Source: Girardia tigrina
Lineage: Eukaryota
Direction of reading: 5' to 3'
Assembly: GCA_001938485.1 (NCBI GenBank)
Contig: MQRK01214093.1
Location: 1 to 56,892, forward strand
DNA: 56,892 nucleotides
A program made the translations under genes and the position numbers. This document shows positions 6,669 to 52,598 of this stretch, piece by piece. A model generated the notes under the pieces. The model did not search any database, was not told the origin of the DNA, and worked only from the letters and a program-made list of their open reading frames with translations. Numbering within the stretch: position 1 is the first letter of the stretch; the number at the start of each line of letters is the position of its first letter.

Positions 6669-7136
6669 ATGCAACAAGTTCCTGATGTAAATGAAGAGAG
6701 AGAAAGTGTTCCTAATCTTATTAAAAAATTTAATGAACTTTATCGTTCTAAACCTATGAGAAAACTACAATCCGAATCATTTAAAAATGAAGCATCTCAT
6801 TTCAAAAGTGATGCACTTTGTACTAATTTAAATGAATCAACAGTTTCTCACAGTCAATATTCTTCTGTCGTAAACGAAGAGAGAGATAGTATTGCTAATC
6901 TTATTAAAAAGCTTGATGATTTTTTTCGTTCTAAACCTATGCGAACACCACAATCCGAATCATTTAAAAATGAAGCATCTCATTTCAAAAGTGAATCACA
7001 TTGTACTAATTTAATTGAATCAACAGTTTCTCACAGTCAATTTTGTTCTTTCGGATATGAAAACATACAAAATTCATTCAGTTCTCAATCGAGCAATTTG
7101 TTTCTATATCTTAGACATTTAATTGGTCAATATTAA
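6669..7136 (+). CDS. Orphan 61-aa-repeat protein, copy 1 (2 repeats, 3'-truncated)
   Basis: Starts MQQVPDVNEER and has two 61-aa units. Homology to copy 3 stops near 7098, so the family C-terminus is missing. Confidence 0.6.
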   Translation: MQQVPDVNEERESVPNLIKKFNELYRSKPMRKLQSESFKNEASHFKSDALCTNLNESTVSHSQYSSVVNEERDSIANLIKKLDDFFRSKPMRTPQSESFKNEASHFKSESHCTNLIESTVSHSQFCSFGYENIQNSFSSQSSNLFLYLRHLIGQY

Positions 7137-7180
7137 CATAAATGGTAACTATTTTCGAAAATATTAATTTTATTTTTTTC

Positions 7181-8922
7181 TTATATAATTTAAAATTAAA
7201 TTTATGAAATTATTTAAAATTTTACAACGATTTTGTTAGTTTTACTTGATGTTGCGGAAATCGTGATTCCACATTATATTCAAAATATAAATCAAATCCG
7301 ATTGTCGTGATTATTTTTATTTTATTTTTTATTGTCTATTTCATTTTTTTTGCCCGAAAATCTGGTGATTATTTGAAATGATTCGCATTTGTCATAACAG
7401 ATTATGACAACGCCTTTCTAATAAGCTACTTTAGAAAAGGTGTTACAATTTCTTGAGAGACACCTTTTACAGGTAGAATATTTCGAATTTGAATAGTTAC
7501 GATTTTTATAGTAATCATTAGACATAATCAAAATAGACATAATCACTGAACGAAAAAAAAGCGAAGAAATATTTTTGAAACTTTATTGAGATTGAAAATA
7601 TTTTTCGTATTAATTAATGATTGTACACATTTTTTACACATTTTTTTTACCATTAATTGTTTATTAACAAATATTTTGTACACTTTTTACCATTAATTTC
7701 ACGACATTGATTCAAAATGGATTGAACATTTGTTGATTGAATTTAATTTAATTTTTGAAAATTGATCCCTTTAAACACTTTATTTAAAAAAATTAAATTG
7801 TGACAAAAATTTACATTCGAATCCTTTTGCAGCACACACAAACAATTTCTCCAATCATATTCATACATTTTCAGAAAATTACATTTATTTATTTAACACA
7901 CAAACATATACATACACACATCCAAGATTACATGTACATGTTCTCAACTCAATTAAACACAAACACAATCACTCAACTCGCCCTCAACATACATCTCAAT
8001 TTCCCAGGTGATTACTATTCACCGAATTTAATTTAAAAGATCTAAATGCCACAAATAAAATTGATTGATTTACAACTCGTAATCGATAATAAACAAAATG
8101 AATCCAAAAACTACAAAATACCGTCACAAAACGATATGAAAGTGATGGTTTAATTATTTAAATGAATTTTAACTTTGTTTAATGATTTTAATTATTTAAT
8201 TTTATTTTTAATTATTTAATTTAGTTATTTTATTCATTTAAACTTTTTTAATTACTTTAAACTTTTTTTAATTGTTTAATTTACTTAAACATATTTATTT
8301 TATTTGTTTGGAATATATATATATTTTCAAAAACTAGCAAAATATTCGGCTAATCATTCGATTTTCCGCTCCACTTGACATACCACTCATATGAACAAAC
8401 GAGTCCATCGATTATTTCAAAATGTATTGGATGCCCATACAAAACAAAGAAAACTACATCAATTCGATTAATCAAATTTAGAAAAAAATAATCACTCCAC
8501 TAATACATTTTGCTCTGCTGAATATTTAAAAAAAATCCTCAAATTGTTATTAGTTTTTTGAAAAACATTTTTTACTTCAATTGTTATTAAACCAGAACCA
8601 AAGTTTTTTTATTGACTTTAATTTTTTAATTTAATTTTAGTTTTTTCTTGAAAATTGTCGATCATTTTTATTTCCTAATACTTTTTCTAATTGTCGATTT
8701 CCTTTAATAAATAATTTTTAGTGACCTTATTTCGCAACTACAATCTTATAGAGGAGTACAGGTAAAATGACATAGAGCCGTATTTTCTATGTTAATATCC
8801 TCATACTCTTAACATGTTTAGTAAATAATTTTGATAGTCTGGCTAAGCACTCTTAAATCAGCGAATCATACTTAAGTGAATGTTGTTTTCCAAGAAACGA
8901 AAACTGTGAATGATGAATTCAT
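7181..8922. repeat. Right inner arm of the inverted duplication, interrupted by a solo LTR
   Basis: 7181-7249 and 8374-8922 are the reverse complement of 5775-6357. Confidence 0.9.
7250..8373. mobile_element. Solo LTR, 1124 bp, 5-bp TSD CTTGA
   Basis: TG...CA ends with short inverted termini (tgttgcggaaatcg / cgattttccgctcca). CTTGA at 7245-7249 and 8374-8378. A single CTTGA (empty site) is present in the other arm at 6313-6317. Confidence 0.85.
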
Positions 8923-9089
8923 CAATTGTTTTTGATTTATTTAATATTTCATTGTTTGATCATCATTAACCAAATAATAAAAAATTCCAAACACTTCAAG
9001 AGATGAAAGAAAACTTATTCTTTCAATTTCAAATTAATCAATAATAAAATTCGACAACATTTTAGTTTCTCAAATTAAAAAATCATTGA

Positions 9090-10200
9090 AATACATTGAT
9101 TTTTGTGGACCAGTAAAAAGAAATATAAATGGATATATATTTGCAAACTATAAATCAAAAAACAATTGATTAATTCATCATTCACAGTTTTCGTTTCTTG
9201 GAAAACCACATTCACTTAAATATGATTCGCTGATTTAAAAGTGTCAGACTATCAAAATTATTTACTAAACTTGTTAAGAGTGTGAGGACGCTAAGATAGA
9301 AAATACGGCCCTATGTAATTTTACCTGTACTCCCCCCTATAAGATTTTAGTTGCGAAATATTAGCCTGAATGAAGGTGCTAGTCAAGAAAAAACAGTTAG
9401 AAAATTGTTATTGGATAAATGGATAGGGAAATTCGGACCACCAAAAGAAATCCATGTAGACAGAGGCAAAACATTTGCATCGGCTTTGTTCAAGGACATG
9501 GCGAAAAAAATAAAAGTTGAAGTATTCTATTCGAGTCCATATCATCCTAATACAAAATGAATCATGGAAAGACAGTTTCTCACGATCATAGATGCTTTGA
9601 ATATTAGAATGAAGGTTGGAGATCATTAAGAATGGACAGAAGTCTTATCAGAAGTCGAGTTTATGTTAAATAGTACTGTACAAGCTACGACAGGCATGTC
9701 ACCAACCGAGATAGTATTTGGAAGGAAACTGAGACATTGTTAGAAAAAAAATTATCAAGATAACAAAAATGTGAAAGCAGTTGAAGAAAAACAGTGACAA
9801 GAAAAAATTTTTAAGTCGGCGACAAAGTATTGATTAAGAAGAAAGATGTCTCAAAAGAAGATGACCGTTACATGCGTCCCGTAACAATGTTGAAAAGAAA
9901 TCATGAAAGAAGCTACGAGTTACAGCTTGAAGATGAAATAATTTTTATTAGAAATGTTGAATGACTAAAGCCATTTAAATCGAGGTGATGTGAGAAATAT
10001 TTTGAATGTATGATGTTTTGTGTTTGAATGTGGTATGTTGATTTGCAATTGTGTCTCTCCTACCCAGATGGCTGATTAATATTTGAATTCTTATTATCTT
10101 AAAATATATAACGTTTAGATTTATTTCTAATTTAACAAAAATTTAACGTTAACAAAACGGGATTTCCAGGTCGGTTTTAAAAACGTTTTTGATTTTTAAT
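9090..10200 (+). mobile_element. Ty3/gypsy integrase remnant with PPT and start of the 3' LTR
   Basis: YIDFCGPVKRNING, KFGPPKEIHVDRGKTF, SSPYHPN and a PTEIVFGRKL tail, similar to the integrase at 25.2-25.9 kb. aaatcgaggtga is followed by TG at 9989. Several stops. Confidence 0.85.
9176..9360 (+). repeat. Third copy of the inner-arm segment (direct to 5781-5968, inverted to 8730-8922), inserted in the integrase remnant
   Basis: Direct sequence match, including sequence beyond the MITE-like end. Confidence 0.85.
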
Positions 10201-10450
10201 AGTTGTTTTATTACATCATTTTTAATTTTAAAATATTGGATAAGCATATTAACATTAAAATATTTTACCCTTTAAATTAAAAAATAATAAATTATACTGG
10301 CGAGATAAAATTTTAAATTAACCCCTCATACTCGCAATATCCAGGTAACACGGAATACCAACTGGATGGCTCTTAACTACGTTAAAACTATGTTATCGAT
10401 TAAAATATAAGTAAAATTTGAACCACCATGCTTACTTTATTTCTCTTTAT

Positions 10451-10930
10451 ATGCTTAACTAATACAAAAGAAAAACTAAACGCCAAAGTTTTGACGAAAA
10501 GTCGATGAAGTCCACCATTGAAGCAGTGTATGGTCGAAGATTGGTTACCTTCGAGCTTGTATATGCTTTGGTGTACCTATTTGTTCATTACGTGCACGGG
10601 TAAAAGAAAAAAATTACCGTGCGATTGAAAATGTTAAAATACTTAGTTCAAGAACGATGAGTTTGTCTTTTGAATTGAAGGAGCATCTTGTGGAATATAT
10701 CATGAAAATGGAGCGGCTACTTTATAGCTTAACAATTATAGACGACAAAAAAATGGCATATGAGCTTTCTGTATATAACAACATACCTTCAAAACAACAC
10801 CGTTAAAACACAGACACAAATATGGCTGGTTAGGATTGGCTTGTCAATTTTCGTAGATGCCATCCTGAATTGTCTTTCAGAACTCCAGAGACAACGTCTT
10901 TATTTGCGCCACTGGATTCAGAACTGAATG
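10451..10930 (+). pseudogene. pogo-like transposase remnant, second (inverted) copy
   Basis: Reverse complement of 4250-4723. Confidence 0.75.
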
Positions 10931-10960
10931 ATTTCTGATGTAATAAATGTAAGTTCTATA

Positions 10961-12293
10961 CAGGGGTAGCCATAAGTCGCTTTACCCAGTTTTAATAATA
11001 AGCACAAAATTCTAAATGATTTATAAACAAAAACCAGATAAAATTTTTTGTTTTAATAATTATTTATTTAAAAACTTTTAAAATTATTTCATTTTGTTCA
11101 TTGTTGTTGGCAATATTGGCATGGAACGACAATTAACACTTCAGCAACAAATTTTTATAGTAAAGCAGTTGATAAAGCATGATAGAAATTCAAGAGCTGT
11201 AGCTGCAGCATTTGCAAAAGAGTATCCTAATGACGCTCCTCCATCACGACAATCAATGCATGTTATAGCAAAGAAGTTTCACGAGACCGGCTCAGTAACC
11301 GACAAGAAAAGAAGTGGGCGCCCTAACAATATGAATACCGAGGAAAATAAAGAAAATGTTAGAACTTTCTATCAGAATGCGCCATCAACATCTGCAGTTC
11401 GTGCAAGTTTGCATTTGCATATGCCACGCACAAGTTTATGTAGAATAATTGAGGACATTGAGTTGAAAGTTTGGCGACCTCGGTTGCTCCATCAAATGAA
11501 TGATGACGATTATGACAGACGCATAGAATTTTGCGAATGGTTACAGCAACAACTCCATGAGAACATTGACATCAGGGACAGAATAATTTGGACCGACGAA
11601 GCTTCATTTAAGTTGAATGGTCACATTAATTTGCATAATGCCATGTACTACTCCACTGAGAATCCTCATCTGGTATGGGATACTAACAATCTTTCTCCAG
11701 AAATTTGTGTGTGTGGAGGAGTACGTTCAATTGGTGTGCTGGGTCCATACTTATTTGATAGAACGGTTAATTCTCAGCTATATATCGACATGCTGCGTCA
11801 TTTTGCCGTACCTCAGTTCGACGCAGATAACGACGTTTGGATGCAAGAAGGTGCTCCCCCTCATTATGGTAGAAATGTACGCGACTTTTTGGATAACACT
11901 TTTGAGATGTGGATCGGCAGGAGAGGAACCATGGAATGGCCTCCACAATCACCGGACCTGACACCCTGTGATTATTCAATGTGGGGTATCCTGAAGGAAC
12001 ACGTTTACTCACAAAATTTTCTAACCATATCCGAGTTGAAGGAAAGAATTACTACAAAAATTGCAGCCTTGAACAACGATAAAAATTTGTGCCTACGAAT
12101 CCGTTACTCTGTTCAGAGAAGAATCCAGTTGTGTATTAAATCTGAAGAACAAAGCTTTGAAGATAAGATTTTTTTGTTTTCAAGTTTTTGTTTTGAAATT
12201 ATTATTGTACGCTGATTAAATAAAAGTTCTATGATTTAAAATTTTGTGTTTATTATTATTAAAACTGGGTAAAGCGACTTATGTCCACCCCTG
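10961..12293 (+). mobile_element. Tc1/mariner rosa-like element, second copy at the same TA site
   Basis: TIRs at 10961 and ending at 12293, TA flanks, and the same flanking sequence as copy 1. Confidence 0.95.
11121..12215 (+). CDS. Tc1/mariner (rosa-like) transposase, probably inactive
   Basis: Same motifs as copy 1, about 22 aa differences, and the same D-to-E change. Confidence 0.9.
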   Translation: MERQLTLQQQIFIVKQLIKHDRNSRAVAAAFAKEYPNDAPPSRQSMHVIAKKFHETGSVTDKKRSGRPNNMNTEENKENVRTFYQNAPSTSAVRASLHLHMPRTSLCRIIEDIELKVWRPRLLHQMNDDDYDRRIEFCEWLQQQLHENIDIRDRIIWTDEASFKLNGHINLHNAMYYSTENPHLVWDTNNLSPEICVCGGVRSIGVLGPYLFDRTVNSQLYIDMLRHFAVPQFDADNDVWMQEGAPPHYGRNVRDFLDNTFEMWIGRRGTMEWPPQSPDLTPCDYSMWGILKEHVYSQNFLTISELKERITTKIAALNNDKNLCLRIRYSVQRRIQLCIKSEEQSFEDKIFLFSSFCFEIIIVR

Positions 12294-14760
12294 TATTCCC
12301 TACAATTTTAATTGCTTTTACTCATATCAAAATTGGGTATTTAAAAAAGTATTAAAAATTTATTTATTTAAACAATAATATTTTTCATCATTTTATGGTT
12401 GATAAAATTTTATTTATTAGAGATGGAAACTTGTTAGAAACGTTTTAAATCATTGACTTTTTGAATTTCTAAATTTTTGAATAACACTTTTTATAAATAT
12501 AAATCATAATTTTGCTGTGGACCTCCTTAATCACGTTGTGGATCCCTAGGGGTCAACCTGGACCCCGTTGGAAGCCCTGGTTTAAATAAATCTAAATGTA
12601 AAAAGTGTACACACACGAAATCAAAAATGTTGTAAATAGGTTGTAAATTGTTGTGAAATAAAATTTCGAGGAAAGCTTGTATTGAATTTTATAATCAAAG
12701 GTCGAATTTAAGTTCTAGGAATTTTAATGTGTTTCGTAAAAAAACCAATTTATTAAGGAAAATAATTCAAAATCTAGAATGGATGATTTTGGGTGGCAAC
12801 AACAGAAATCTCATAAACAAAGAAAATCGAACAGTGTTTCGGAAATTCGATCTCCTTTAATCACGACAGGTGATAATCAATCGGGAAGTAATTTTGTAAG
12901 GAATAGAAATTTCGATCTGTGAAACGGAATTTTGATGAAAGGAATTGATGTAATAAATTGATGAAATTTACGTTGGTGGGAGATATCAAACATATAAATA
13001 GTGACAAAATCAAATCGTTATCGGTTGTAATTGATGGACTGTTGCGTAAATTGTAGGATTGTTTGTTTTTTCCAGTTCCAATCAATATTTCTCCACATTG
13101 ACACCTACAATAACGGGGTTGAGCTTAAAAATGAGGCATTTTTCGCTGCGATTTTAACATTAGATGCCGACAGTTGTTATTGACTACGTTAACATTCTCG
13201 GTACGATCAGTTTTCCGGAAACATCCAATAGCCAACCCCGGGACTCCGCGACCACGCTGCTCCCGCTCGGGCGCCAACACTAATTGTCGATATTTTTATT
13301 GTTTTTATACGGTCAATTAGAGTTGTGAAATTTGACAAACTATAACATTGTTTAATAAACTGACAGAACTTAACGATCACATCCCATCGAACAAATAACA
13401 CATTTTCGCCATTCATTATCCGCTGTTCTCGAAGAAAGATTTCGATATTGAAGATAGACTATATGATTAGACATTATTTTCCTTTATTAAATCCAATTGA
13501 AGTTGCACCATCCTTTGTAACATTCTTTGTTGGTTTTATTGATTTTCCTTTTTAACCCTTTCCTGTCTGAATTAAGATGAATTAATGGAGTCCGTAAATC
13601 ACTTTCTGCAACTTTCAAATGATAAAAAACAAAAGAACAGTTTAAAAGACACGTTTTAAAATAATTTGTCTTTAAAACAGAAATCTTCCTATAAATAAAA
13701 TATAATTCATATTTTTTCAAAAGATGCCTATAAAGTATTAAAATGAAACATGATTCCACATGGTATCAATAGTCAGGAAAGGGTTAATCATACTTCCTGC
13801 TATTGTGATAAAATTATATTCCTTCGTTTTTCTCCTTCCGTTGTTTAATTAACGTTTATTCAATTATATCAAGAAGTTGAGTAGATGATATAGTTATTAA
13901 TATATATTATTTGATATTCTAAAATATTGATTTTAATAAAAGTGAATCCGCAAATAATTGAATATATAGTTTATTACTCTCTCGTCCGCCGTCAGAAAAA
14001 AAGTAAAAAAGGAACAATCGAGAAATATCAATCAGCAATTCCTCGAAAAAAACAAAACTCTGGTAATAATCACATAAACCAGAATTCGATTGAAATTCAA
14101 AACGAGTTTCCACAAAATCACTGGTATACGAACACTCGGAAAAACAAATCGATTTCACTTCATAAAAATTTGACTGATCATAACTCTGAATTGAAATTTT
14201 GATCAACATTCAAAATTTCTCAAATCATCAAAAATGTGCAGCTAATCAGATCGGCCGAATCTTTACACACCATACGCACTTTCCCACGATCGAATCGAAC
14301 AAATATGTTCAAACAAAGAGTCACATGACTCTAATAAACAACAAACTGAATTATTTTTAAACTGAATTAAATTCATTAAAAAATAAATTATTTCTCAATT
14401 ATTTTTTTTGTTTTACATTATTTAATTGATTTATTTTTTAAAATTTTATTTATATATACATATATGTAAATAAATTATGTGACAACAAAAATAAATAAAA
14501 ATTATCAAAGATTGTCATTCAAATTATTTCGGTCTCTTCGAAGTAAGAGAGAGATGAAGGATTCAATTAATATAAATTACGATAAATATAATGTATATAA
14601 TGATAAATGTGATTCCAAACACCATGCTTCAATGTCCTAATCTAATCATTATCATGCTTAAATCTAATCATTAAAATATTTTAATTTTTTTCTATTATAA
14701 TTTTAAATAATAATTTTAAAAAGCCTGAAAATTACGTGATGTTGTGTAGTATTCTGTCGT

Positions 14761-14886: not shown

Positions 14887-15381
14887 TGACTTGAATTTTC
14901 AATTAGTAAAGTGACGATGCCAAAACTGGCCAAATATGTATTGAGAAATAAATATTTAAACAAATGTTTTTTTTTATGTTTCATATATTTCTCTAGAATG
15001 ATGTACGATACCGAAAGTTTTGTTAATGATTGTTTGAGGACATTTCAACTTATAATATTAGTAAAAATATCGAAAAAATTAATTTTCATGATATATTATT
15101 TATGTTAAAGAAAACTATTTACACAATGATTAAAAAGGGACAATCACAAAATTATTTATTAACGAGTTTGTTTAATGAAATTACAAAGTTTTGAAGATAC
15201 AAACATCTATTGAAAATCAAAATATATTTGAAAAACATTTTTCATTGAGGACATGTTAGTAGAAAAACTTTTTACGAGCTTCTTCGATAGACTATTATAA
15301 AAGACGATGTTGCTGAAAATTTTTCTTTATAATGTTATTATGCTCCTCATGTATTTGGTGATCTGGTTTCACGAATGTGCT

Positions 15382-16557
15382 TCATGAACCTTTATTAAAC
15401 TTTTTAATAAGATTAGAGACACTGTCTCTCTCTTCGTTTACGAGAGAAGAATATTGATTGTGAGAAACTGTTGATCCAGTTAACTTAGTACAATATGATT
15501 CGCTTGTAAAATGAGATGCTTCATTAGTAAATGATTCAGATTGTGGTTTTCTAATAGTTTTATGACTATAAAATTCATTAAGCTTTTTAATAATATTAGA
15601 GACATTGTTTCTCTCTTCGTTTGCAACAGAAGAATATTGATTGTTAGAAACTGTTGATTCAGTTAAGTTAGTATAATGTGATTCACTTTTGAAATGAGAT
15701 GAATTATTTTTAAATGATTTGGATATTGGTTTTCTAATAGGTTTATAACGATAAAATTCATTAAATTTTTTAATATTATTAGAGACATTGTTTCTCTCTT
15801 CGTTTGCGACAGAAGAATATTGATTGTTAGAAACTGCTGATTCAGTTAAGTTAGTATAATGTGATTCACTTTTGAAATGAGATGATTTATTTTTAAATGA
15901 TTTGGATATTGGTTTTCTAATAGGTTTATAACGATAAAATTCATTAAATTTTTTAATAATATTAGAGACATTGTTTCTCTCTTCGTTTGCAACAGAAGAA
16001 TATTGATTGTTAGAAACTGCTGATTCAGTTAAGTTAGTATAATGTGATTCACTTTTGAAATGACATGCTTCATCAGTAAATGATTCGGATTGTGGTTTTC
16101 TAATAGTTTTATAACTATAAAATTCATTAAGCTTTTTAATAAGATTAGAGACACTGTCTCTCTCTTCGTTTAAGAGAGAAGAATATTGATCTTGAGAAAC
16201 TGTTGATCCAGTTAAGTTAGTACAATATGATTCGCTTGTGAAATGAGATGCTTCATTAGTAAATGATTCGGATTGTGGTTTTCTAATAGTTTTATAACTA
16301 TAAAATTCATTAAGCTTTTTAATAAGATTAGAGACACTGTCTCTCTCTTCGTTTAAGAGAGAAGAATATTGATCTTGAGAAACTGTTGATCCAGTTAAGT
16401 TAGTACAATATGATTCGCTTGTGAAATGAGATGCTTCATTAGTAAATGATTCGGATTGTTGTTTTCTAATAGGTTTATAACGATAAAATTCATTAAATTT
16501 TTCAATAAGATTAGAGACACTTTCTATCTCTTTGTTAACATCAGGAACTTGTTGCAT
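15382..16557 (-). CDS. Orphan 61-aa-repeat protein, copy 2 (about 6.3 repeats, premature stop relative to copy 3)
   Basis: MQQVPDVN ATG at 16557 (the ORF is open further upstream). 183-bp tandem units with no frameshift. An in-frame fossil family tail (..QQHRLL**SIEEARKKFFY*) lies downstream. Confidence 0.65.
   Translation of the reverse strand: MQQVPDVNKEIESVSNLIEKFNEFYRYKPIRKQQSESFTNEASHFTSESYCTNLTGSTVSQDQYSSLLNEERDSVSNLIKKLNEFYSYKTIRKPQSESFTNEASHFTSESYCTNLTGSTVSQDQYSSLLNEERDSVSNLIKKLNEFYSYKTIRKPQSESFTDEACHFKSESHYTNLTESAVSNNQYSSVANEERNNVSNIIKKFNEFYRYKPIRKPISKSFKNKSSHFKSESHYTNLTESAVSNNQYSSVANEERNNVSNNIKKFNEFYRYKPIRKPISKSFKNNSSHFKSESHYTNLTESTVSNNQYSSVANEERNNVSNIIKKLNEFYSHKTIRKPQSESFTNEASHFTSESYCTKLTGSTVSHNQYSSLVNEERDSVSNLIKKFNKGS
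15392..16537 (-). repeat. 183-bp coding tandem repeat, about 6.3 units
   Basis: tctctcttcgtt recurs about every 183 bp. The translated unit NEERDSVSNLIKK...QYSSLL is 61 aa. Confidence 0.95.
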
Positions 16558-18467
16558 TTTTAAATAGTAATTGTTAGATACGTGATTGTTGGGTTCTTGA
16601 TCACAATTGTAATTCATTAATACCAAATTTTATTTATAATACAAATAACAATTATTTAAACAATTTTTCGTCGAGGAACTTTTCTTTTTTTTCTTTTGAT
16701 CAATTTCCTTATACACAAAAATATGGGATTATAAATAATGATAAGCTATTTATTGAAAACGTTATTATAAAAATTGAATTTATATTTTTTATTCCATTAA
16801 TTTTATAGATTAACATTCTTTTATTTTATAAAATATATTTTAAAAGAAAATATAAAATCAACATAATTTATTTAACTAAATTAACAAAAAAAATTATTTA
16901 TTTATTATGTCAACGTTTTATTTATTATCAATATTTCAATTTAAAAACATTATATTGCCTAAAGTTATTTAATTGAGTTATTCGTTTTACTTTTTTACAT
17001 GTTTAAATAAACTTAACAAAAGATATTTATCATTTTAAGCTTATTTTAATGTTTATGCTTAATTTTTTAATTAAAAAATCCATTAGTATCTATACAATTT
17101 GAATACAAAACATAATTTACAATATTTAAATTTATTGTTATATTATAACGATTCAATTATTATAAAATTTTTAATGGTTGCTTTTATTTTTTAACAAAAA
17201 CTGTTTAAAACTAATTATCATCAAATATTTAATTTGCAGAATTTCAAACTGACTTTAAGATTTAAAATTATCTGTTTTTTAAAATTACATTTCTATAATT
17301 ACATTTCATTATAATTACAAATCTTAATTCGAATGAAAACTGCTGCTTTGTTTTTTCTGAATTATTTTGCATTTTTGTTTCGATTTATAAATATGTAAAT
17401 ATTAAAAAAAAATAAATAATTATAAAAGAATTAAAAAAGTAAATTTAAAATAATAATTGAAATTCTTTCAATAATTAATTATTTTTATTAAAAGTTTTTA
17501 AAATTACCTAACAACTGAATTACCATTAAAATCAAGAAATAATTTACAATTTTCTTAAGTGATTACATAATCATTCATTTCTTAAATAAAAGCAATAAAA
17601 AAGAACATAATCAGTTGTCTGATGATAACATATAAACCATCGAAATATATTATCATAAAATATATTTTTTAATGTCGTTTATTTGTTTTCAATAAAACAT
17701 TACCATCTATTTTCAAGTTTATTTGTAATATAAAAAGAGAAAGTTCTCATCACCAATCAAAAGATTACCGTGAAACGCTAATTAATTATTATTGTTTGTA
17801 TTATTTATTACTTTTTAGTCATAGAGTAAACGTGTAAAAAATTTTTTATTAAATAATTAAAATACAATTATTTCAACATGTATTTCAAAGAATAACAATT
17901 TTATTTTAAATTCGTAAATTTTTTTTCAAAAATTAACAATTGTACTTCCAATTACATACTTAACAATTGCACGCAAAACTTTTTTCTTATCATTGATAAT
18001 GTTTTAAAAATAATATTTTTATTTATCCATTTATTTCAATAATATTAAAACTAGGCATTAAAATCAGTAGTTAAAATTTTCAAATGAAAATATTGTATTT
18101 TTCATGATTAAAACGATTTAATAATAATTATAAAAGATGAGATTAATTTGTTATTGATCCATATTGATTATATTTAAAAAAATCATTGAACTTTCTTTTG
18201 AATCATTTTTATCTCGTAACAACATTTTAATGAACTAAACACCTTTAACCAGCTTTAAGAACCTCTGATTTATTAGGATATATGCGGGTAAAAAATTAGA
18301 TATAACAAATATATCATAGATAGTTATTATGCGACTATTTCAAGATTTGCACGAAATGAAATCCCGTAAATCATTTTTAATAGTCATCTGTGAGTAATAC
18401 ACAAAAAAACTTTTATTGGTTTCGATAACAGAATGTTTTATTTCTACTTAATCAAAGTGTTTCACTT

Positions 18468-18716
18468 AGTGTTATTCCTAAGTAGAAAGCTATTGATACA
18501 AAATATAAAACTTTTGATCATAAAATATCTAACTTTACTATAAATACTTGATAAAATATTTATATGAATACAAATATCAGTATAAATCTTGATATTTAGA
18601 GTAAAAAGTTAGATAATTATAATGAAAAGTTTTACATTTTGTTATCAAATAGTTATATTTTGGAATCAAAAATTTTATGTTTTGTTATCAAAAGTTTTAT
18701 ATTTCAGAATAACAGT
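18468..18716. mobile_element. Small foldback/MITE-like element with degenerate internal repeats
   Basis: Ends tagtgttattc / gaataacagta, with inverted arrays of aaaagttttatatttt-like units. Confidence 0.35.
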
Positions 18717-33940: not shown

Positions 33941-35703
33941 TCTATATCTATATATATTAGATATATATATGTGTCGCCCACAAACTCCGTCCGCATTTCG
34001 GATCGGGAAATTCCGAATAAATCGTCAGGGATCGTTCTCTGGACTGGTCGACATTGAGAAATCGGGGATCGTATTGCACCGTTGCCAAGTACGAGTAGTC
34101 GCCTGTTGTGGCGACGATTCGCGATTGCGCGATCAGATATTTTCAATAATCGGAATTGACGGATTCCCGTTCGAATTTTATCGGCAAACGATCGATAACA
34201 AATCGATAAAACCAAGATCGATGATCCTGTTTTTCCGAGCATTTATTCTCTGGCATTTTTGCATTTACCCAAACTAGGTGAAATGTCCAAATCGATCAAT
34301 GTAATCGAAATAAAAAATCCCAAACGATTTCAATCAATATATTTTTTCAATTCAAAAAATTTCTGTACAACGCCAATTATTCAAACAATACCAAATTAAA
34401 TTATTCACAGTTTTTCGATAGTATTTTTTGATCAATTTTTTAAATTTTTAATTGTATTAAAAATTTTCTAATATACGTCTGAATTTTTCTAAGCTCAAAA
34501 ATTTCAGGGGTCGCAAATCCAATTAAGAAATTTTTTTCAAAATTAAAAATCAAAAAATTAAATTAAATATCACTTTAAAAAAACTCTTAATTAGTTGCTG
34601 CTGCTGATGCGATTTAGTGAACACTACAATATATCTTCAATATTATAGTTTTTTAAAGTTTTATCATCAATTATTACTTTTTGTTATTTTTGCATTTTTT
34701 CTGGGAGATAAAAATTGGTTCTTCTTGTAAATTTAGCTATTGTTTTAATTCTATCTTCTATAATCCTTTTTCGTTCCTCTAAAAAATAAACTTCTTCTGA
34801 ATAAGTAATATTAATATTAAAATTTAAAGCCATATCTTCAATTAGAGGTTGTTGAATTAGAGTTTGATCTTTAAACATCAAATTATCGACAGTGAGAGTC
34901 TTGACCTCGAAATCCTCAATCTGATCTCCCTATTCATTAACGAATTCATTATCAAGCAAACTTTATCCGAGTTTTTTAACGTACATTTTCTTTTCCAATC
35001 TTTTCTTTAATAAATTAGGAATTCTTCTGCATGCTACCCTAAATCTAGTAGTGAATGATATTGTGTAACTTTTTCCTTGTTATTTTTGAATACCCCTGTA
35101 ACCATATCTCTAACAATATCTTTTATTCTTCTTTGTGTATTTAATTCTTGCATAACCATCCATGTTACAGATCTAAATCTTTCATGAATATCTTCTTTTT
35201 ATTTTTTCCCTCTTCATAATTATGGGTAAATCTTTTATTATTTTCAAAATCTAAATTACTGGAAAATGTATCCACTTTATCAATTTTCTTCTTTATCGAC
35301 TCCATATCTTTCTTTATCGAGTCGATATCTTTCTTTAACGAGACAATATCTTTCTATAACGACTCTATTTCTTTCTTTTGCGAGACAATTTCCTTCTTCA
35401 GTAAGTCTATTTGTGAATTAAAATTTTTTATTAACTTTATCTCTTCCAAAATATCAATATTTTGAATTATTCAGGGATTTTACCCGATCCTCCCCATCCT
35501 CATTAACATATCGATTATCTGACTCTCATTATTTTCATGTTATTATTTTCCAGAGCTTCATTGATTTTTTCCTGATTCATCCCAGTTTGTAAAATGTTTC
35601 CAAATTTATTCACAGGATAACTCATTTAAGGCCATTTTTTTATTTAAATCTATTTTTTAATACTATTTATTTTTAAAAATAAAAACCTTAGCCTCGCGAG
35701 TAA

Positions 35704-36060
35704 TTACAATAAAGTTTCAGGCCATAAATAATCTAACATTTCTTCAATGATATCATCAAATTTCATGATTTTATTATCACATTCACACCGATACAATTTA
35801 AACATAAAATACAAACATAATTGACCACATAATCGTGTTCCAAAAGGTTTTACTTGAACAGTATTATAAATGCATTTTTGGAAATCTTTTAACGGTTCTA
35901 TTCCAAATGGATCGAAATCCAACTTATTGTGATTATCACGATAAAATGCTACTCAATGACTTCCTTTTTGATCGGAATCTTGATAGTTGATTATATTTAA
36001 TTTCTTATCGTTTACTTGATCCATTTCATTAGCCATTAGAACTTGAAAATCTTTAGGATC
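35704..36060 (-). pseudogene. Adenain-like (C5) cysteine protease of the Polinton
   Basis: IINYQDSDQKGSH*VAF..DFDPFG..YNTVQVK..CGQLCLYF matches the GSHWVA / FDSFG / Q..CG motifs. The Trp codon is now a stop. Confidence 0.85.
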
Positions 36061-36219
36061 TATTTTCAATTTTAGTGACCATACCGTAAGATCGAAATTA
36101 GTCGATGTATCAACTCTAAACATCATCATAAAATCACCTAAATTATAAAATTCAAGTAAAGTCATTTTCAATTCCGATTTTTCTTTGTTCCAAAATTACA
36201 AAACACTTTGGCGTAATCT

Positions 36220-37065
36220 GAGACATATTTATTTGTTCGTTATTGAAATTAAGTAACCTTCTCTTATCATCTATGTTTCTCATCGTGAAATCATTAATCT
36301 GATAAATATATACAGGATAATAGGTAACGAAAGCCGGACCTCAGATATTTTGTATCCAATTGGAACGGTAAAAGCCGGAAAAGAATAAATAATATTTGTA
36401 TTTTTCAAATTTTCAATATTTGCTACTCTAATATTACCTTTTTCCTCAATTGAAACGTGTTAGCAATATTACAATCAATATTACAAATATTAATATCTGT
36501 AATCTGAAAAGTATATTTCGACTCATAATCCGTAATCACAATATTGTTTTTATTGATAAAATAAAAACTTCGGTCTCCAGTAAACAATTTATGTTTTGGA
36601 TATTTATCCGGATAAATTTTATCAAATCCATCCATGGAAAAAATAATCGATTTCTTTTCAAATTCGATATAATAATTAATTTGGATTTCGATTTTGAAAA
36701 TAACCGTCTTGTCATCAGTTTCCACTTTAATCAAATTATTAGTTAAACTCAATGTTTCTTTATTAATATCTTTAAAACCTTTGGGACCCTTTTTCAAATT
36801 TAATTTTATATATACGTAATTTATATTAACTTTTACTATATTTTTTCTTTCTCCTTTTATTTCAGCGGGGAAAGACGATCATTTTTAAATAAAATAAAAC
36901 GAATTGTTTTCGTCAGTGACATAAGCGACAGTATTATAGGTGGAAAACCACAATAATCCTATTTCGTATTTGAATTTTTTTATCCAAATTCAGCTGAACT
37001 GGTAAATTGATTCTCGAGCGGAAATAGTACAAGGTATTGAAAATCCTTTTGTATCATCACTCATT
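36220..37065 (-). pseudogene. Polinton minor capsid (penton)-like remnant
   Basis: NIDCNI...IIYSFPAFTVPIGYKISE motif. Confidence 0.65.
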
Positions 37066-37069
37066 TTTT

Positions 37070-37900
37070 AGTTTGAGTTTTTCAAGATCTCTTGTGATTT
37101 TTCTTTCGTTATGAATTTTCGGGATTTTATTTTTTTTATTATATTCCTGATATTATCATCCAAACCATCATGACCTTCTTGGCAGCAGTATATTTATATA
37201 AGTAAACAAGCAATGAGATTGGATCTTGTGGTAATTAAGAAGATGTTAAACCATAACCAACATTTTCAGTATCTGATTGAACTTGTTTATCTTTTTTATA
37301 CTTACTTTTTCTCTTTTTACTACTTTCTTCCTCATTTTGACTTTTAATTTCAACTTAATTTTTTTTTTAGTTCTTCCTGAATTTTGTCTGAATCAATATC
37401 TTCCAGAAGTGGATCTGTTTGAATATTAATTTCTTTGAATGATTTTTGTTTACGCTATTTTTTCTCCATCTCTTTTGGTTCTCTAAAAACTCGATTTTCT
37501 CGATCTTTTTCGTTCGATTCTCTTCTTGTTTCAATAATTTTCAAACAATGTTTTATGTAGGATCTATCGTTAATATTTTGTATTCTGACCCTTTTTAATA
37601 AATTAATATATTTCTTATATCCAATTATTATCTTTTCAATGGAATATTTCGTTTCTAAAATAATATCGTAATTTCCAATTAATAAATTGTTAAAACCGTC
37701 ATCAATAGGAAATTTGTGTGAAATATTCTGGTTTACAAAATTTAAATTCTCTTTATCATTTATTAGAACGCATATTAAATTATTTAACGTTAAATATTGA
37801 TTTCCCCGATAAGCCTCGTCTAAAGGCGAAGTATATGTTCCGAATCGAGGAATTAAAGCAGAATTGGATCGTGTAAAGTTATCATAATTGTTAGGAATAA
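37070..37900 (-). pseudogene. Polinton conserved ORF (PZ-like) remnant
   Basis: C-terminal G.GL..LPQDP..L...L....AAKK.GHDGL...I...I...K.IT motif. Confidence 0.5.
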
Positions 37901-38947
37901 CGAAAATACTGTTTTAAAATTTATTTAATCCAAAATTAAATTCTCGCCTTTTATTTTTGATTATTTAAACAACCTTAAATATGTCATATTTAATGACATA
38001 TTTTAATTTATCTAAATTTTAAATAGAGAGTTTTATTAAAAGTATTCTTGAACCATTATTATTTTTTAATTTAATTTAGTTTATTTACAAATTATTATTA
38101 AGTTATTAATTATATCTCACAATAATAATCCGTATTTTCAAATAGTTTCATATATGGAATCGAGTGATGTGATCCGAATTCGGTTTTGAGTTTTTCCCGT
38201 AATTCCTCTAAATATTTATTAGATTGGAATTGGTGTTCGGTAATAAATTCTTTATCCTGAGGAAAGAGATTGAGTTCATGGATCATTGAATCAATCTCTC
38301 GCTGATTATTTTCAAATAACTGCTCAAACTCTTTAAAGAAACTCTGGGATATTTTATCATCATAATTTTTGATATCCACCTCGAGAATTTTTTTAATATC
38401 ATTTTCATTTTTTATCAGATTGTTTTTCAATGTTTGTGTTAAAACCTAAATATTACGATGTAACCAAGCTAACCAAATACCGGAGATGATTTGATGAACT
38501 TGGTGACATATAATGAAACAAACGTATTAACAACATCCCAATTTGAATGCAAACATTTATTTATAACACAAACAGATTTTTCGCAACTATTTTCAGAGGT
38601 CATCTTTCTTTGATTGATATAGTTTTTGATTAAATATTCAAATATAAAAAAAACAATGAATGGGAACATTTAATATTACATTTTAATTTCTCATAATTTT
38701 ATTGGATAAACATACATTATGTAATTTTTTAAATAAACATAAATTTTTAAAATATATTAAAATTACTAAGTTAAAATCGTTTACTGAAAATATTATTAAA
38801 ATTCATAATTACCAAATTTTAATTAATTAGTACTTAAAATTAATATCATTAGATTCAAATAATCAATGAAATAACATATCAATCCCGTCTGAGTAGGAGA
38901 GTCACAAATCTAAACAATATACCACAACAAACTTACAACATTCCAAA

Positions 38948-41070: not shown

Positions 41071-41221
41071 GAATAAATGTCATTATTTTAAATTATCAAT
41101 ATCATTGATTCAATGATATATTAAGGAAATTTTTTTCCTTATAGATTAATTAAAAAAAATTATTAAATTAAAATTATTATTAATAAAAAAAGGGGTGTTG
41201 TTGCATTTTTTTGTGCTGGGC

Positions 41222-41529
41222 CATGATTTTGTTCCTCGGTTCGCTGTTGTCAGATTTCACGGTGAACGAACCGCTCGCGGACGACTCCCATAGATACTGC
41301 TCGTCGTCATTGCCCTTGGAAATTTGCACTTGGATTTTGTCAGCGACCAGATACGACGAATAGAAACCGACACCGAATTGTCCAATCATCGAGATATCGC
41401 CTTCGGCTCGCAGTGCCTCCATAAATGCATGGGTTCCCGATTGGGCGATCGTTTCAAGATTGTTGTTGAGCTCGGCTTTCGCCATACTAATTTCCCGTGT
41501 CGATCAGCGTGAGTGACTGCGTCTTTGTC
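41222..41529 (-). pseudogene. HSP90: HSP90 N-terminal ATPase-domain fragment
   Basis: SLTLIDTG(fs)..[66 protein letters not shown](fs)RGTK. Confidence 0.95.
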
Positions 41530-41925
41530 GATATAAAAACTAAACTAGAGAAACGGATCTTCCGTTATCACACTTTCCGATTCGTTCTCGGTGTTTGTCA
41601 TCGTGACCGACAATCGTCCAGTAAGAAATTAATCGATAAAATTCAAATTTCCATTACGACCAAACGATTTCAATTAATTCTCATTCGGAGATGAATTGAG
41701 TATCGCTGGAATTCAGAGAGTTTTTTAAAGCGCTCGAAAGATTTTCGCCCAACAATCGTTGGCGTCCTGTTGCATCAACAGTCAATTTTCCGCCGGCTTT
41801 ATCGATCAATGCGATCGGTGTTGTGGCAGCAAATTGCGGACACAAATGGTGCAAAAACTTAACGAGCATCACTGGCTGAATCAACAAATCCGAGCTGTCC
41901 ATACTCGCAATCAATGGACCGAGTC
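41521..41925 (-). pseudogene. USP14: USP14/Ubp6 ubiquitin-specific protease fragment
   Basis: SMDSSDLLIQPVMLVKFLHHLCPQFA..(fs)LMQQDANDCWAKIFRAL..NFID*FL....VTMTNTENESESV..EDPFL*FSFYI is colinear with USP14 (SMDK..IPPIILLQFLHMAFPQFA..LQQDANECW..LIDQFF....TTMKCTESEEEEV..QLQLSCFI), recalled from memory. Confidence 0.82.
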
Positions 41926-47668: not shown

Positions 47669-49074
47669 GGTACGTCGACTTTACCACGGACGACTTTACC
47701 TCGGGCAACTTTACAGCGGGCGACTTTACCGCGGAAAATTTACAACAAAATTGTAAATAAGTGAACAATTTCATATAAAATATGAATAAAATTTTTTAAT
47801 AATGTAATAAAACAATGAATCATACAAGGGTTTTAATTTTAAAACATAAATGGATAGAAAAATTTCAGATCGACATGACATTTAATTGTTCTTTTTATTA
47901 TAAAAAATAAACAAACAACATACGAAAAATTAGTAAATTCCAAATTTAAAAAATTCAAATAATATTCTAGAACAAATAAATAATAATGAAAAGTGAATAA
48001 CACACGAAAAAATGTAATGTGTAAATATAAGATGCAAAAACATTAAACTGATATATTAAATTAATGGAATAGTAAAATTATAATAGTAAGATATTTATAA
48101 ATTTTAAGTAGTTTATATTAATTTTTAATGTTTTAATTTAAAATTTTTTAAATTTTAAAAACTCTGTTGGCAAAGTAGAGTTCTGTCTGCAAAAAGAATG
48201 GATATTAAAATATTAATTTTTTGATTTACTAGTTTTAAAATTCTTTCGCTTGCAATCACCCAACTGTTGATAATTTGATAAATCAATTTCGTACTGAACA
48301 ATATTTTGTTGAACTAATTTGCAGGGCATTAGAGCAAGTGAAGAATTCCCAGAATTCTCATCACAAATTTACGTCAAAGTAAGTGAGAGAATTGAACGTG
48401 TCGTTGAGCAATATAATGATTTACCAATATTGGATTATCTTAGAGGCGTTGCTGATAATTTAAACTTTTTGGATTAACCCTTGAATGCATCTTGTATCAA
48501 AAATGATACAACAAACGTTTGAAAGTGCCATGCATCCAGTTTGTGTAAATAATTGCTGTCCTTTGTAAATAAATTATCTTTGTACATTTTTGTCTATGAC
48601 GATTATAACAAAACATGTCAAAACTCCCGCCAATATTGATATAAACGTCAAAATTCTTTAAACGTCAAAAAATATTTCATGAAAAAATAAAAAATCATGC
48701 ATTTAAGGGTTAAAGAATATATTTACTTTTCCACTAATTTAATATATCAATTTAATGTTTTTGTATCTTTCTTCTATTTACACATTAAATTTTTTTCATG
48801 TGTTATTCATTTGTTCTAGAATGTTATTTGAATTTTTTAAATTTGGAATTTACTATTTTTTTGTATGTTGTTTATTTATTTTTTATAATAAAGAGAATAA
48901 TTAAATGTCATGTAGATCTGAAATTTTCTATCCATTTATGTTTTAAAATTAAAACCTTTGTATGATTCATTGTTTTATCATTACATAATTAAAAATTTTT
49001 ATTCATATTTTAGATGAAATTGTTCACTTATTTACAATTTTGTTGTAAATTTTCTGCTGTAAAGTCGCCTCATC
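47669..49074 (+). mobile_element. Internally deleted Mutator-like element (MULE) with ~400-bp TIRs
   Basis: 9-bp TSD GTAAACCAC at 47660-47668 and 49075-49083; long TIRs; 15-bp subterminal repeats (cgactttaccgcgg); transposase C-terminal remnant HPTVDNLINQFRTEQ..RIERVVEQY..LDYLRGVADNL at about 48245-48475. Confidence 0.88.
48478..48709. mobile_element. piggyBac-type MITE, 232 bp, innermost layer
   Basis: cccttgaatgcat / atgcatttaaggg TIRs with TTAA on both sides. Confidence 0.85.
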
Positions 49075-49680
49075 GTAAACCACATGCGAAATGAGGGGAA
49101 TTTGATAAGTGGTGTAAAATATATTTCATTACATAACTAAAAATCATCATATGTATTTAAAAAAATAATATTTCAGTTTTATATTTATAGCAATATTATT
49201 TTAAATGAGTCAAATTGGCTCAGTCCGTAAATCAAGTGTTAATGATTATTTACTTTTCCGAAGGATAACTAAAATCTCCGGTTTTTCCTGAATTATTGTA
49301 ATTCATGGAGTCGTGAGATCGGTGAACAAATTTTCTACAATATTTTCGAATTTTAAATGTTATATATTTTTTTTATTTTACGGAATGTGTAAGAACAATC
49401 AGTTGTACTGGTATAAATTACTTTTATTTAATTAGCAAAATTTTGATAACTTTTTTTACGTTATTGCACGTTAAAAGCTTATTTTGGTTAGACGTTGAGT
49501 TTAAGAAAACTTTAAACCTTTTTTATTTGTAGATTGCATTTTAAATTTTGAAAAATATATAATATAGTTTTTTTATTATTGGCTACCTGACTCGTGATCC
49601 GTTCCGCTATTGCCAATCATACGGAGTGGACTTTAACTTTAACTTTTAAAACAAAATTAAATGGGGAAGATTGTACTTTA

Positions 49681-49829
49681 AAGGTTTCTTAAAGTAAAAC
49701 AATAACGAAAATTTTCCGCATTTAAGTTAAACGATATATTTCCTGTATATTGTGTAACGTATTGCACAATATTGTTCTAAAATTATATATAATTGTCAAA
49801 ATTTATTCTAATATCATTATTATTTAAAA
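49681..49829 (+). promoter_or_regulatory. Putative promoter/5'UTR of orphan-family copy 3
   Basis: Homologous to 6520-6668. TATA-like tatatataa near 49784 and a CCAAT near 49613. Confidence 0.5.
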
Positions 49830-50447
49830 ATGCAACAAGTTCCTGATGTAAATGAAGAGAGAGATAGTGTCTCTAATCTTATTAAAAAGTTTAGTAAATT
49901 TGATAGTTCTATACCCACGCCTCAAGTCATTAGAAAACCAAGAACCGAATCATTTAAAAATGAAGCATCTTATTTCAGAAGGGAATCACATTGTACTAAT
50001 TTAACTGGATCAACAGTTACTCACAGTCAATATTCTTCTGCCGTACACGAAAAGACACAAAATACCTGCAGTTCTAGATCAAACAATTTTACTGATTTTT
50101 CTTCAACTTGTTTTGACAGAATTCAGCAATCAGTTCAAACCCGGTCCTCTTGTTCTCAATTACACAGTAATGAGAATCAAAATTATGCTTCTCATTCTCA
50201 ATTACTCCCTATTGCGAGTCAAAATGACAATTCATTTAACAATTGTCAACTCATCGACAATCGAAATGTGAACCCCATTTTTCGAGATTTCAATACTAAA
50301 GAGAACTGTAAGTCAATAATGGTACAACATCACCAAATGCAGCAGTCAATGTTCAAGGTACATAATGACATTGTAAATCAAAATCTTCAACAACATCGTC
50401 TTATACAAGAATCTATGGAAGAAGCTCGTAGAAAGTTTTTCTACTAA
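49830..50447 (+). CDS. Orphan family copy 3 (one repeat unit, S/N/Q-rich middle, EEARRKFFY end); the most complete member
   Basis: 205-aa uninterrupted ORF. Its 5' flank is shared with copy 1; its tail and about 200 bp of 3' flank are shared with copy 2 (15110-15380). Confidence 0.7.
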   Translation: MQQVPDVNEERDSVSNLIKKFSKFDSSIPTPQVIRKPRTESFKNEASYFRRESHCTNLTGSTVTHSQYSSAVHEKTQNTCSSRSNNFTDFSSTCFDRIQQSVQTRSSCSQLHSNENQNYASHSQLLPIASQNDNSFNNCQLIDNRNVNPIFRDFNTKENCKSIMVQHHQMQQSMFKVHNDIVNQNLQQHRLIQESMEEARRKFFY

Positions 50448-52595: not shown

Positions 52596-52598
52596 CTT

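Follow-up and report, generated by a model that had tools for sequence, protein, structure and literature searches.

A lineage-restricted planarian gene family with a Lifeact-like, probably actin-binding N-terminal helix

Genes and repeat arrays in the window

The window analyzed here (56,892 nucleotides of Girardia tigrina, positions 1 to 56,892 of contig MQRK01214093.1) contained three intronless open reading frames, at 6669 (+, 155 aa), 16557 (-, 391 aa) and 49830 (+, 205 aa), named copies 1, 2 and 3, which shared the MQQVPDVN start described in the initial annotation. Their features were as follows:

6625-6657, plus strand: copy 1 core promoter, with a TATA box (6625-6631) spaced 30 nt from an initiator-like TCATT (A at 6655)
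6669-7136, plus strand: copy 1 reading frame, 155 aa, two units, 3'-truncated, without the C-terminal helix
6669-6740, plus strand: copy 1 conserved 24-codon head, with a Lifeact-like motif (V14, L17, I18, F21) and a hydrophobic residue at 24
15256-15381, minus strand: what remains of the ancestral C-terminal helix, dead and part of the copy 2 3' UTR, accumulating stops
15382-16557, minus strand: copy 2 reading frame, 391 aa counted from the ATG of the family, with six 61-aa units and a seventh motif helix, then a stop
16558-16635, minus strand: putative copy 2 leader, starting near 16635 inside the end of the LTR-like element; four dispersed fragments begin at 16628-16635
16586-17311, minus strand: 5'-truncated copy of a high-copy solo-LTR-like element, which replaced the ancestral TATA box of copy 2
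49786-49818, plus strand: copy 3 core promoter, with a TATA box (49786-49792) and an initiator-like TCATT with its A at 49816
49830-50447, plus strand: copy 3 reading frame, 205 aa, of ancestral type (head motif, disordered linker, C-terminal helix)
49830-49901, plus strand: copy 3 conserved head, a predicted actin-binding helix with model contacts at residues 3-22
50298-50441, plus strand: copy 3 C-terminal helix, residues 157-204 (pLDDT 88-96 over 161-205)

The 61-codon repeat was genuine, and formed 183-bp tandem arrays of 2.0 copies in copy 1 (6687-7053) and 6.2 copies in copy 2 (15394-16536); copy 3 had a single unit, 12 nt longer. Together, the reading frames and the repeat pattern were far beyond chance. 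Judged by its sequence, the 61-aa unit is the duplicated first 183 bases of the gene and not an old domain. The accordion of 1, 2 and about 6.3 units was real but was not the basic design of the family: it is derived in two copies, and 5 of the 7 paralogue types have one unit. The frames of all units were open, as had been noted, but so were two nearby Tc1-like frames (377 aa), so that open frames alone are weak evidence at this locus.

Copies 1 and 3 shared a 5' flank of 152 nt (81% identity), as previously outlined. A 3' block was also common to copies 2 and 3 (approximately 180 nt in total), but only some 64-90 nt of it was flank, instead of the 200 bp or so first estimated, and copy 2 does not encode the common C-terminus attributed to it. 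Its tail sits behind a TGA (15384-15382) with two further stops, and is therefore dead 3' UTR; three to four stops were present in this tail in other haplotypes. An alternative genetic code for the tail was rejected, since the stops vary between haplotypes and TAA ends other copies. The array of copy 2 had 5.3 units in the collinear second haplotype (G000:C232496). Copy 1 departed from the family around 17 codons past its second unit, with homology stopping near 7099, and a second copy of its tail was not found among 40 scored candidates. The other haplotype's collinear contig lacked copy 1, which is flanked in the window by inverted arms (5755-6307 and 8388-8942).

Searches of the same genome uncovered a larger, older family (191-320 aa). 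Its proteins have a conserved head of 24 residues, a Ser/Asn/Gln linker that drifts neutrally, and one or two helices at the C-terminus. The deep paralogues (317, 320, 305 and 306 aa) had little in common beyond the head, and their C-terminal helix was doubled as a repeat of about 50 aa. A 100-degree hydrophobic period was clear for this helix in paralogue E; in A, B, D and F another peak ranked highest. The motif EEARRKFF, considered as a second actin motif in the C-terminal helix, was discarded, as it is not retained in the deep paralogues. Between copy 3 and B, 80 substitutions had produced no stop (neutral P 0.003-0.008) and the four indel events were all multiples of 3 (neutral 11/47; flanks 1/7), both tests being overstated through ascertainment, because an open frame was what led to the choice of the window copies. 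We regard this as almost certainly a real protein-coding family.

The lineage-specific character of the family was borne out: homology queries with copy 3 or alignments, made before the deep paralogues came to light, gave no match among 1.84 billion representatives or in word-index searches, and no usable match in the Atlas. Neither the PDB sequence search (E<=10) nor the fold search with the low-confidence model gave any match, and no relative was found in metagenome or viral contigs. By exact-sequence look-up, 0 of 10 proteins were present, the genome's actin included, so that the organism is poorly represented in the protein database. The proteins had no recognized domain, without any viral or Pfam match; Pfam PF04320 was rejected for copy 2, where it passed the cut-off only via summed weak repeat matches (0 passing stretches). 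A TE origin had not been recognized from the sequence, and common element ends, target duplications and TE domains were looked for around the copies and not found; the common flanks extended no more than a few hundred bases and ended at different points. In the literature searched, no paper was found printing the family's peptides or describing the family, nor one combining the terms planarian, intronless, lineage-specific, actin-binding and disordered.

Conservation of the head and its match to Lifeact

Nine head residues were invariant in the 7 paralogue types (V4, D6, V7, V14, N16, L17, I18, K20 and F21), and position 24 was always F, L or I. Rapid evolution was confirmed for the linker, whose dN/dS was about neutral (0.75-1.18). 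Among tail-bearing paralogues, clear purifying selection was limited to the head, with a dN/dS for the first 24 codons, a region set before the deep paralogues came to light, of 0.12 (A-B), 0.07 (D-E) and 0.14-0.24 (A or B with respect to D, E and F). Synonymous changes accounted for 6/9 of the head changes in two independent pairs (P=0.002 against the neutral model), and identity between D and E was 23/24 in the head and 49% in the linker (P=4e-6). A dN/dS near 1, proposed beforehand as grounds for dismissing the genes, did hold over most of the protein; the gene is nonetheless real, since what selection maintains is 24 codons and an open frame. The head had a relaxed dN/dS (0.22-0.51) in copies 1 and 2.

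The proteins were largely disordered, as anticipated, most of the chain having an AlphaFold pLDDT below 50: in copy 3, a helix (residues 7-27) was followed by pLDDT below 50 over 28-144, and the model of copy 2 had one helix per unit, at low confidence. Lifeact contacts actin through V3, L6, I7, F10 and I13 (PMC7360965); V14, L17, I18, F21 and F/I24 of the family head align with all five positions, and, over eight consecutive residues, six are the same as in the Lifeact core. PMC13364712 defines the SFM as an F-actin motif, VxxLxxxFE, in which P1 Val and P8 Phe are essential and P4 Leu and P9 Glu modulate affinity; binders with P4 Lys or P9 Gln are on record there, and repeats of the motif are reported in PLEKHG3, SORBS1/2 and SSH2. 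P1 Val (V14) and P8 Phe (F21) were present in the first motif of 7/7 paralogue types (as a motif pattern, not a PSSM score), as was P4 Leu, and the P0 of the family was Ser, as in the SFM match. P9 was Glu in one type (paralogue F), Asp in another, and S, N or H otherwise; every window copy had Ser or Asn there instead of Glu. P8 was Leu in 4 of the 9 motifs of copies 1 and 2 (motif 2 of copy 1, whose motif 1 has Phe, and 3/7 in copy 2), and P4 was Ile or Asn in three motifs of copy 2. The loose pattern VxxLxxxF was found in 2-3% of shuffled proteins and the strict pattern, picked after the fact, in 0 of 20000 shuffles.

A complex model of the head with the genome's own actin scored 0.78, against 0.02 for the best of three controls and 0.01-0.02 for two unrelated partners on the same actin. 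The score mark was reached by 51/78 solved and 2/108 mismatched microbial pairs, and by 71/105 solved and 2/126 unrelated eukaryotic pairs, a calibration which does not extend to peptides or disordered chains. The model was made with one actin monomer and not a filament. Runs shared at least 63% of contacts, with a partner pLDDT of at least 58. In the model, V14, L17, I18 and F21 lay on actin residues 143, 341, 345 and 349, and S13 on 25, the actin residues named for Lifeact and the SFM; the contacts of the model included 23-25. Head residues 3-13 were also placed on actin. The head is predicted by the model to dock in the SD1/SD3 cleft, the Lifeact site, and probably binds F-actin, though the score of 0.78 may reflect memory of solved Lifeact/F-tractin-actin structures.

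Promoters and the LTR-like element at copy 2

The TATA-initiator spacing of copy 1 was the same in copy 3, in the 4 subfamily-B copies examined, and in 2 of 4 deep paralogue copies; it was 31 nt in the genome's Hsp90 gene, and background windows matched in 51 of 16012 cases. The promoter block occurred at gene copies only (19/19 matches). The 5' flank of copy 2 was unrelated to those of copies 1 and 3, and a high-copy element ended 29 nt before its ATG. The whole length of this element was about 1.0-1.15 kb, with TG...CA ends, a 5-bp target duplication and 2823 first-look candidates; of 11 copies with both ends, some of which are redundant contigs, 7 had the duplication (up to 1 mismatch). No exact PBS-type match was found for the element, and its continuation was common to 2 loci only, without gag-pol. 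An element-derived in-frame ATG at 16617 could extend copy 2 by 20 residues. The stretch 17330-18700 was a TE patchwork, unsuitable as a silent control.

Ten dispersed fragments of copy 2 were found, all within 16635-15189, and the four spanning the LTR junction started within 8 nt of each other (P ~1e-4), inside the element. No common mobile tail was found on the ten fragments within 1.2 kb. As a control, an Hsp90 fragment lacked exactly the 57-nt GT-AG intron of its gene and started 3 nt from the Hsp90 initiator. Together, the ten fragments and the four starts inside the element suggest transcription from the element in a heritable lineage; the fragments could be DNA-templated, since an intronless family offers no splice evidence. 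From these sequences, transcription of copy 2 from the LTR appears quite likely. Three contig sets, whose type is uncertain, gave nothing for copy 3 and do not count as evidence on its expression. One copy 2 fragment, joined to a 3' end of Penelope-like type, may have arisen as a chimera by template switching.

The arrays of copy 2 contained 53 variants with none disabling, versus 7 disabling per 90 substitutions in the dispersed fragments (P ~0.016). Their units diverged at or above the neutral non-synonymous rate which, together with the relaxed head of copies 1 and 2, means that the accordion may be drift. Positive selection on the units was rejected, as NG86 ratios above 1 fell within the neutral simulation (P 0.07-0.09 at best).

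Interpretation and comparison with known systems

On balance, these are real genes of a lineage-restricted animal family, whose protein probably anchors to actin filaments via one conserved Lifeact-like N-terminal helix, which the accordion would turn into a chain of up to seven. The first 183-nt duplication may have arisen when two similar in-frame runs, spaced by 183 nt, mis-paired, and unequal exchange would then have altered the unit number (2, 5.3, 6.3). In tail-bearing members of the copy 3 type, the C-terminal helix might tether a partner, or dimerize and bundle. Copy 2 would be transcribed from inside the LTR in cells passing DNA on, and its product, multivalent and lacking the tail, would bind filaments and coat, cross-link or compete for them. 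Selection of its array as a multivalent binder is conceivable, at somewhat less than even chance. Tentatively, and with less confidence, the family could be seen as a natural Lifeact under retooling, in which the LTR switched copy 2 on (stem/germ cells), a deletion took the effector tail, and unequal exchange tunes from about 5 to 7 helices between haplotypes, giving a variable-valency coat or a dominant competitor, with cDNA fragments recording start site and expression over time.

A competing account, to which we give a substantial though minority weight, accepts the family and its actin-binding head but takes copies 1 and 2 as decaying by-products, with a duplication of the first 183 bases due to slippage, loss of the tails, and no more than a noisy transcript from the LTR. 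The C-terminal helix is indeed lost in both copies, Leu replaces the essential Phe in 4/9 motifs, the units evolve neutrally and vary in number between haplotypes, and copy 1 has no second copy and is missing from the other haplotype's collinear contig. Decay is harder to reconcile with the 15 units from three haplotypes, which have no stop or frameshift while the adjoining tail collects stops, with the Phe retained in the first and last motifs in every source haplotype seen, and with an array that terminates directly after a complete motif.

It is unlikely that the head is a helix for a non-actin partner whose resemblance to Lifeact is a convergent, generically amphipathic pattern. In favor of that reading, conservation of residues 1-13 equals that of the motif and Lifeact has no counterpart to them, P9 is mostly not Glu, and predictors readily dock amphipathic helices in the actin cleft, but six of eight consecutive residues and all five contacts match, the post hoc strict pattern was absent from the shuffles, unrelated partners scored 0.01-0.02, and residues 3-13 are also placed on actin. 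The least probable reading, by a long way, and one mostly contradicted by the data, makes the frames TE accessory genes or cargo, or non-coding tandem repeats open by chance. All copies lie in TE-dense DNA, copy 1 between inverted arms, and most of the protein is neutral; against this stand the lack of shared termini or TE frames, flanks ending at varied points, a promoter block confined to gene copies, selection on the head, and the lack of viral or Pfam matches.

An apparently featureless orphan family thereby gains a specific predicted function, and whole-gene dN/dS near 1 can mask a functional gene. If the actin-binding reading is true, SFM-type binding extends to a lineage-specific invertebrate family, which would offer a natural one-to-seven motif series for valency effects on filament binding, bundling and competition. 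Where RNA data are lacking for a gene, the dispersed cDNA-like fragments of this genome can serve as a fossil map of 5' ends.

Multi-repeat beta-thymosin/WH2 proteins (ciboulot, tetrathymosin) also multiplied a short actin-binding helix by intragenic duplication, changing valency; the present family lacks an LKKT-type motif at WH2 spacing, and had no Pfam WH2/thymosin match at E<=1. The planarian blitzschnell genes encode short secreted peptides, whereas the present proteins have no hydrophobic leader, a distinction made by description and not by sequence. According to PMC8290160, blitzschnell is likewise taxonomically restricted and arranged in tandem-duplication clusters, its several subfamilies comprising both genes and pseudogenes. 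Class 2 templated sequence insertions, described in PMC5110952 as short transcribed pieces that fill breaks and lack both poly(A) and target duplication, account for the ten fragments but not for the gene family. The Echinococcus ta-TRIM (PMC4558846) is a solo LTR of a flatworm with a 4-5 bp target duplication, which starts transcripts reading into a downstream gene, in stem cells; transcripts were obtained there by EST and RT-PCR, whereas here they are deduced from dispersed fragments, and here the LTR replaced the gene's TATA box.

There was also a close likeness with the SFM proteins of PMC13364712, where validated motifs are traced in vertebrate proteins and SHROOM3 and not in a family of the present type, and WH2 is set apart as binding actin monomers with opposite polarity. 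Common to both are an S(P0)-V(P1)-L(P4)-F(P8) helix heading a disordered region, purifying selection confined to the motif, and a predicted SD1/SD3 cleft. In contrast to SFM proteins, P9 in the family is mostly S, N, H or D, the motif is nearly all the conserved content of an orphan gene, together with an equally conserved 13-residue extension, and copy 2 consists only of motif-plus-spacer repeats in variable number.

Members and common plan of the family

Six-frame translation of the window confirmed the three ORFs of the initial annotation:

6669 (+), copy 1, ORF of 155 aa
16557 (-), copy 2, ORF of 391 aa
49830 (+), copy 3, ORF of 205 aa

Tandem Repeats Finder detected a 183-bp period, with 2.0 copies in copy 1 and 6.2 in copy 2. 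The repeat unit spanned codon 8 to codon 68, and thus one motif helix plus spacer. Copy 1 was an open frame, as described, but its homology to the family ended near 7099, without the C-terminal helix. For copy 2 the ORF and the repeat array held, but the 5' flank differed from that of the family, and the C-terminus it was said to share with copy 3 was located behind a TGA and contained two further stops.

The own-genome assembly (1.43 Gb in 255,254 contigs, redundant; two contigs were 100% identical to window 48599-56892) was searched with the unit (39 matches from 49 candidates), the tail, i.e. the C-terminal helix part (17 matches from 36 candidates), and whole copy 3 (E<=10; 65 matches from 62 candidates).

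Family members in the assembly.
Type A (copy 3): one locus
Type B: 191 aa, 69% identity to A; complete ORFs on five contigs, of which one has an N gap, additional partial ORFs, two broken copies
Copy 1 type: a separate class among the matches
Copy 2 type: copy 2, a collinear haplotype with 5.3 units, pieces of a third haplotype
Copy 2 fragments: ten, short, dispersed
Deep paralogues D, E and F: 305-320 aa (12 stretches fetched, 3 of the 12 without a family ORF)

In a protein tree, D/E/F formed one group and A/B/copy 1/copy 2 another, the split being fully supported. The plan common to all tail-bearing members was a 24-residue head, followed by a linker rich in Ser/Asn/Gln/Thr and, at the C-terminus, a helix rich in His/Gln. 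A and B had one such helix; in D, E and F it occurred twice, as a ~50-aa repeat. AlphaFold predicted for copy 3 a helix at 7-27, disorder at 28-144 and a confident helix at 157-204. Protein, structure, family and literature searches, where the organism is poorly represented, gave no match to the family.

Types B and E/F repeatedly occurred in divergent inverted pairs, with 5-10 kb between the members (stretches L049/L050, L051/L052 and L165/L166). One B copy carried a disrupting Gypsy-type insertion behind codon 7, and ORF pieces near the B cluster were presumably USO1-like and INTS6-like. Other elements of the window were:

2221-4952 versus 10188-12821 plus 14511-14644, two copies of a composite DNA transposon in inverted orientation (97%), each with an open 377-aa Tc1/mariner-type ORF
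5755-6307 and 8388-8942, long inverted arms on either side of copy 1 (89-94%); third partial copy at 9158-9335
23200-38500 (-), broken element, which we take to be Polinton/Maverick-like with DNA polymerase B pieces, split by a Gypsy-type insertion that has direct repeats at 24848-25149 and 29606-29906; several unassigned ORFs, of which that of 358 aa (33169-34242) had no Pfam match
41196-41923 (-), decayed Hsp90 fragment, with hundreds of candidates in the genome
45604-46478, Penelope-like 3' fragment between inverted arms
47719-49069, second MITE-like element, upstream of copy 3, with inverted arms of its own

Inverted arms like those of copy 1 were not seen around other family members. A second haplotype contig had only one composite-transposon copy, and the stretch with copy 1 was missing.

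Promoter, open frame and constraint on the head

Copies 1 and 3 had a TATA box exactly 30 nt upstream of an initiator-like TCATT. This layout was also present in 4/4 B copies examined and in 2/4 deep copies (the other two had a mutated box and a different flank, respectively), and in the Hsp90 gene of the genome (31 nt); its background rate was 51 in 16,012 windows. The 80 substitutions between A and B made zero stops (neutral P 0.003-0.008, inflated by ascertainment). Their four indel events were of 9, 12, 9 and 12 nt (one reported by BLAST as 2+10, four bases apart), vs. multiples of three in 11/47 indels of neutral alignments and 1/7 in flanks, a contrast also inflated by ascertainment. Synonymous changes were 14 (15.2 expected); overall, the amino acids of A/B drift neutrally.

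For the first 24 codons, dN/dS was 0.12 (A-B), 0.07 (D-E) and 0.14-0.24 (clade vs. clade), compared with 0.75-1.18 in the linker and 0.62-0.69 in the tail; the heads of copies 1 and 2 were more relaxed (0.22-0.51). Six of nine head changes in two independent pairs were synonymous (P=0.002). D and E were identical at 23/24 head residues vs. 49% of the linker (P=4e-6), and A and B had their longest uninterrupted identity, 21 residues, over the head region (P=0.015).

Likeness of the head to actin-binding helices

The head followed the pattern S13-V14-x-x-L17-I18-x-K20-F21-x-x-[FLI]24. The actin contacts of the actin-labelling peptide Lifeact (V3, L6, I7, F10 and I13; PMC7360965) aligned one-to-one with head V14, L17, I18, F21 and residue 24. 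A complex modelled from copy 3 residues 1-42 and an intron-less actin of the same genome scored 0.78 (0.02 for the best of three controls), though peptides and disordered chains fall outside the score calibration. This mark was reached by 51/78 solved and 2/108 mismatched microbial pairs, and by 71/105 solved and 2/126 unrelated eukaryotic pairs. At least 63% of contacts were common to runs, with a partner pLDDT of at least 58. V14/L17/I18/F21 were placed on actin 143, 341, 345 and 349, and S13 on actin 25, the residues described for Lifeact and for the F-actin-binding motif SFM (VxxLxxxFE; P1, P4 and P8 being Val, Leu and Phe). Conserved head residues 3-13 were also on actin in the model (215-218, 304-310 and 329-334), an extension without counterpart in Lifeact. 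Since complexes of the Lifeact/SFM type are already solved, the score indicates likeness, not binding; the same conserved head might bind something other than actin, which, beside the residue-by-residue match to Lifeact, we consider unlikely. Intron-less actin paralogues with odd substitutions (e.g. ALAFDEEMHT) were found beside conventional actins (L151, L153).

Probable transcription of copy 2 and proposed mechanism

An element of high copy number, with 2,823 first-look candidates (raw search candidates), ended 29 nt before the copy 2 ATG. Whole copies were about 1.0-1.15 kb, started with TG and ended with CA, and 7/11 two-ended copies had a 5-bp target duplication: the element is solo-LTR-like, 5'-truncated here. 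It took the place of the copy 2 TATA box and contributes an in-frame ATG at 16617.

The ten copy 2 fragments (140-430 bp, 92-98% identity to copy 2) occupied unrelated sites: within a Tc1-like transposase of which an intact counterpart exists, between neighbouring portions of a Gypsy-type RT, fused to a Penelope-like 3' end, adjoining an antisense 18S rRNA piece (L064 7619-8167 (-)), etc. All mapped inside 16635-15189, and 4/4 junction-spanning fragments began at 16628-16635, though the LTR extends 700 bp further (P about 1e-4). No such fragments were seen among A, B or copy 1 matches. In the Hsp90 control (545 first-look candidates, 12 loci examined), one locus lacked exactly a 57-nt GT-AG intron and started 3 nt from the gene's initiator; a second locus of the same origin shared both features. 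These pieces indicate that the genome captures cDNA beginning at start sites. Together with the fragment starts, they point indirectly to probable transcription of copy 2 from within the LTR, in cells whose DNA is passed on. Solo LTRs that start gene fusions have been documented in a flatworm (PMC4558846), and patches templated by RNA in human cells (PMC5110952). Stretches L136 and L138 carried the Hsp90 N-terminus fused in frame to a common unrelated tail (ORFs of 261 and 429 aa).

In type A, about 13 nt at the start and at the end of the unit were alike and in frame with each other, a plausible seed of the first duplication. Units were mosaic and their number varied between haplotypes. Copy 2 had seven motifs and a stop four codons past the seventh; behind it, the ancestral tail was accumulating stops in all three haplotypes. 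None of the 53 variants in 15 copy 2 units was disabling (P about 0.016 at the fragments' 7 per 90 substitutions), as expected if the array itself were selected; Phe to Leu changes in 3/7 motifs, a variable P4 and a unit amino-acid change rate at least equal to the neutral rate count against array function, and we lean slightly towards doubting such selection. The accordion copies may instead be decaying by-products of a real family, a serious possibility, somewhat short of even, and compatible with the function of the head. A TE origin or chance is very improbable.

The reading we consider probable is that the head would anchor the protein to F-actin, the linker would act as a length-tolerant tether and the C-terminal helix would serve a dimer or partner; copy 2, controlled by the LTR, would be a multivalent derivative that lacks the tail. 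The motif class is already known; new are a gene with one SFM as its conserved content and a paralogue made of only SFM-spacer repeats in variable number.
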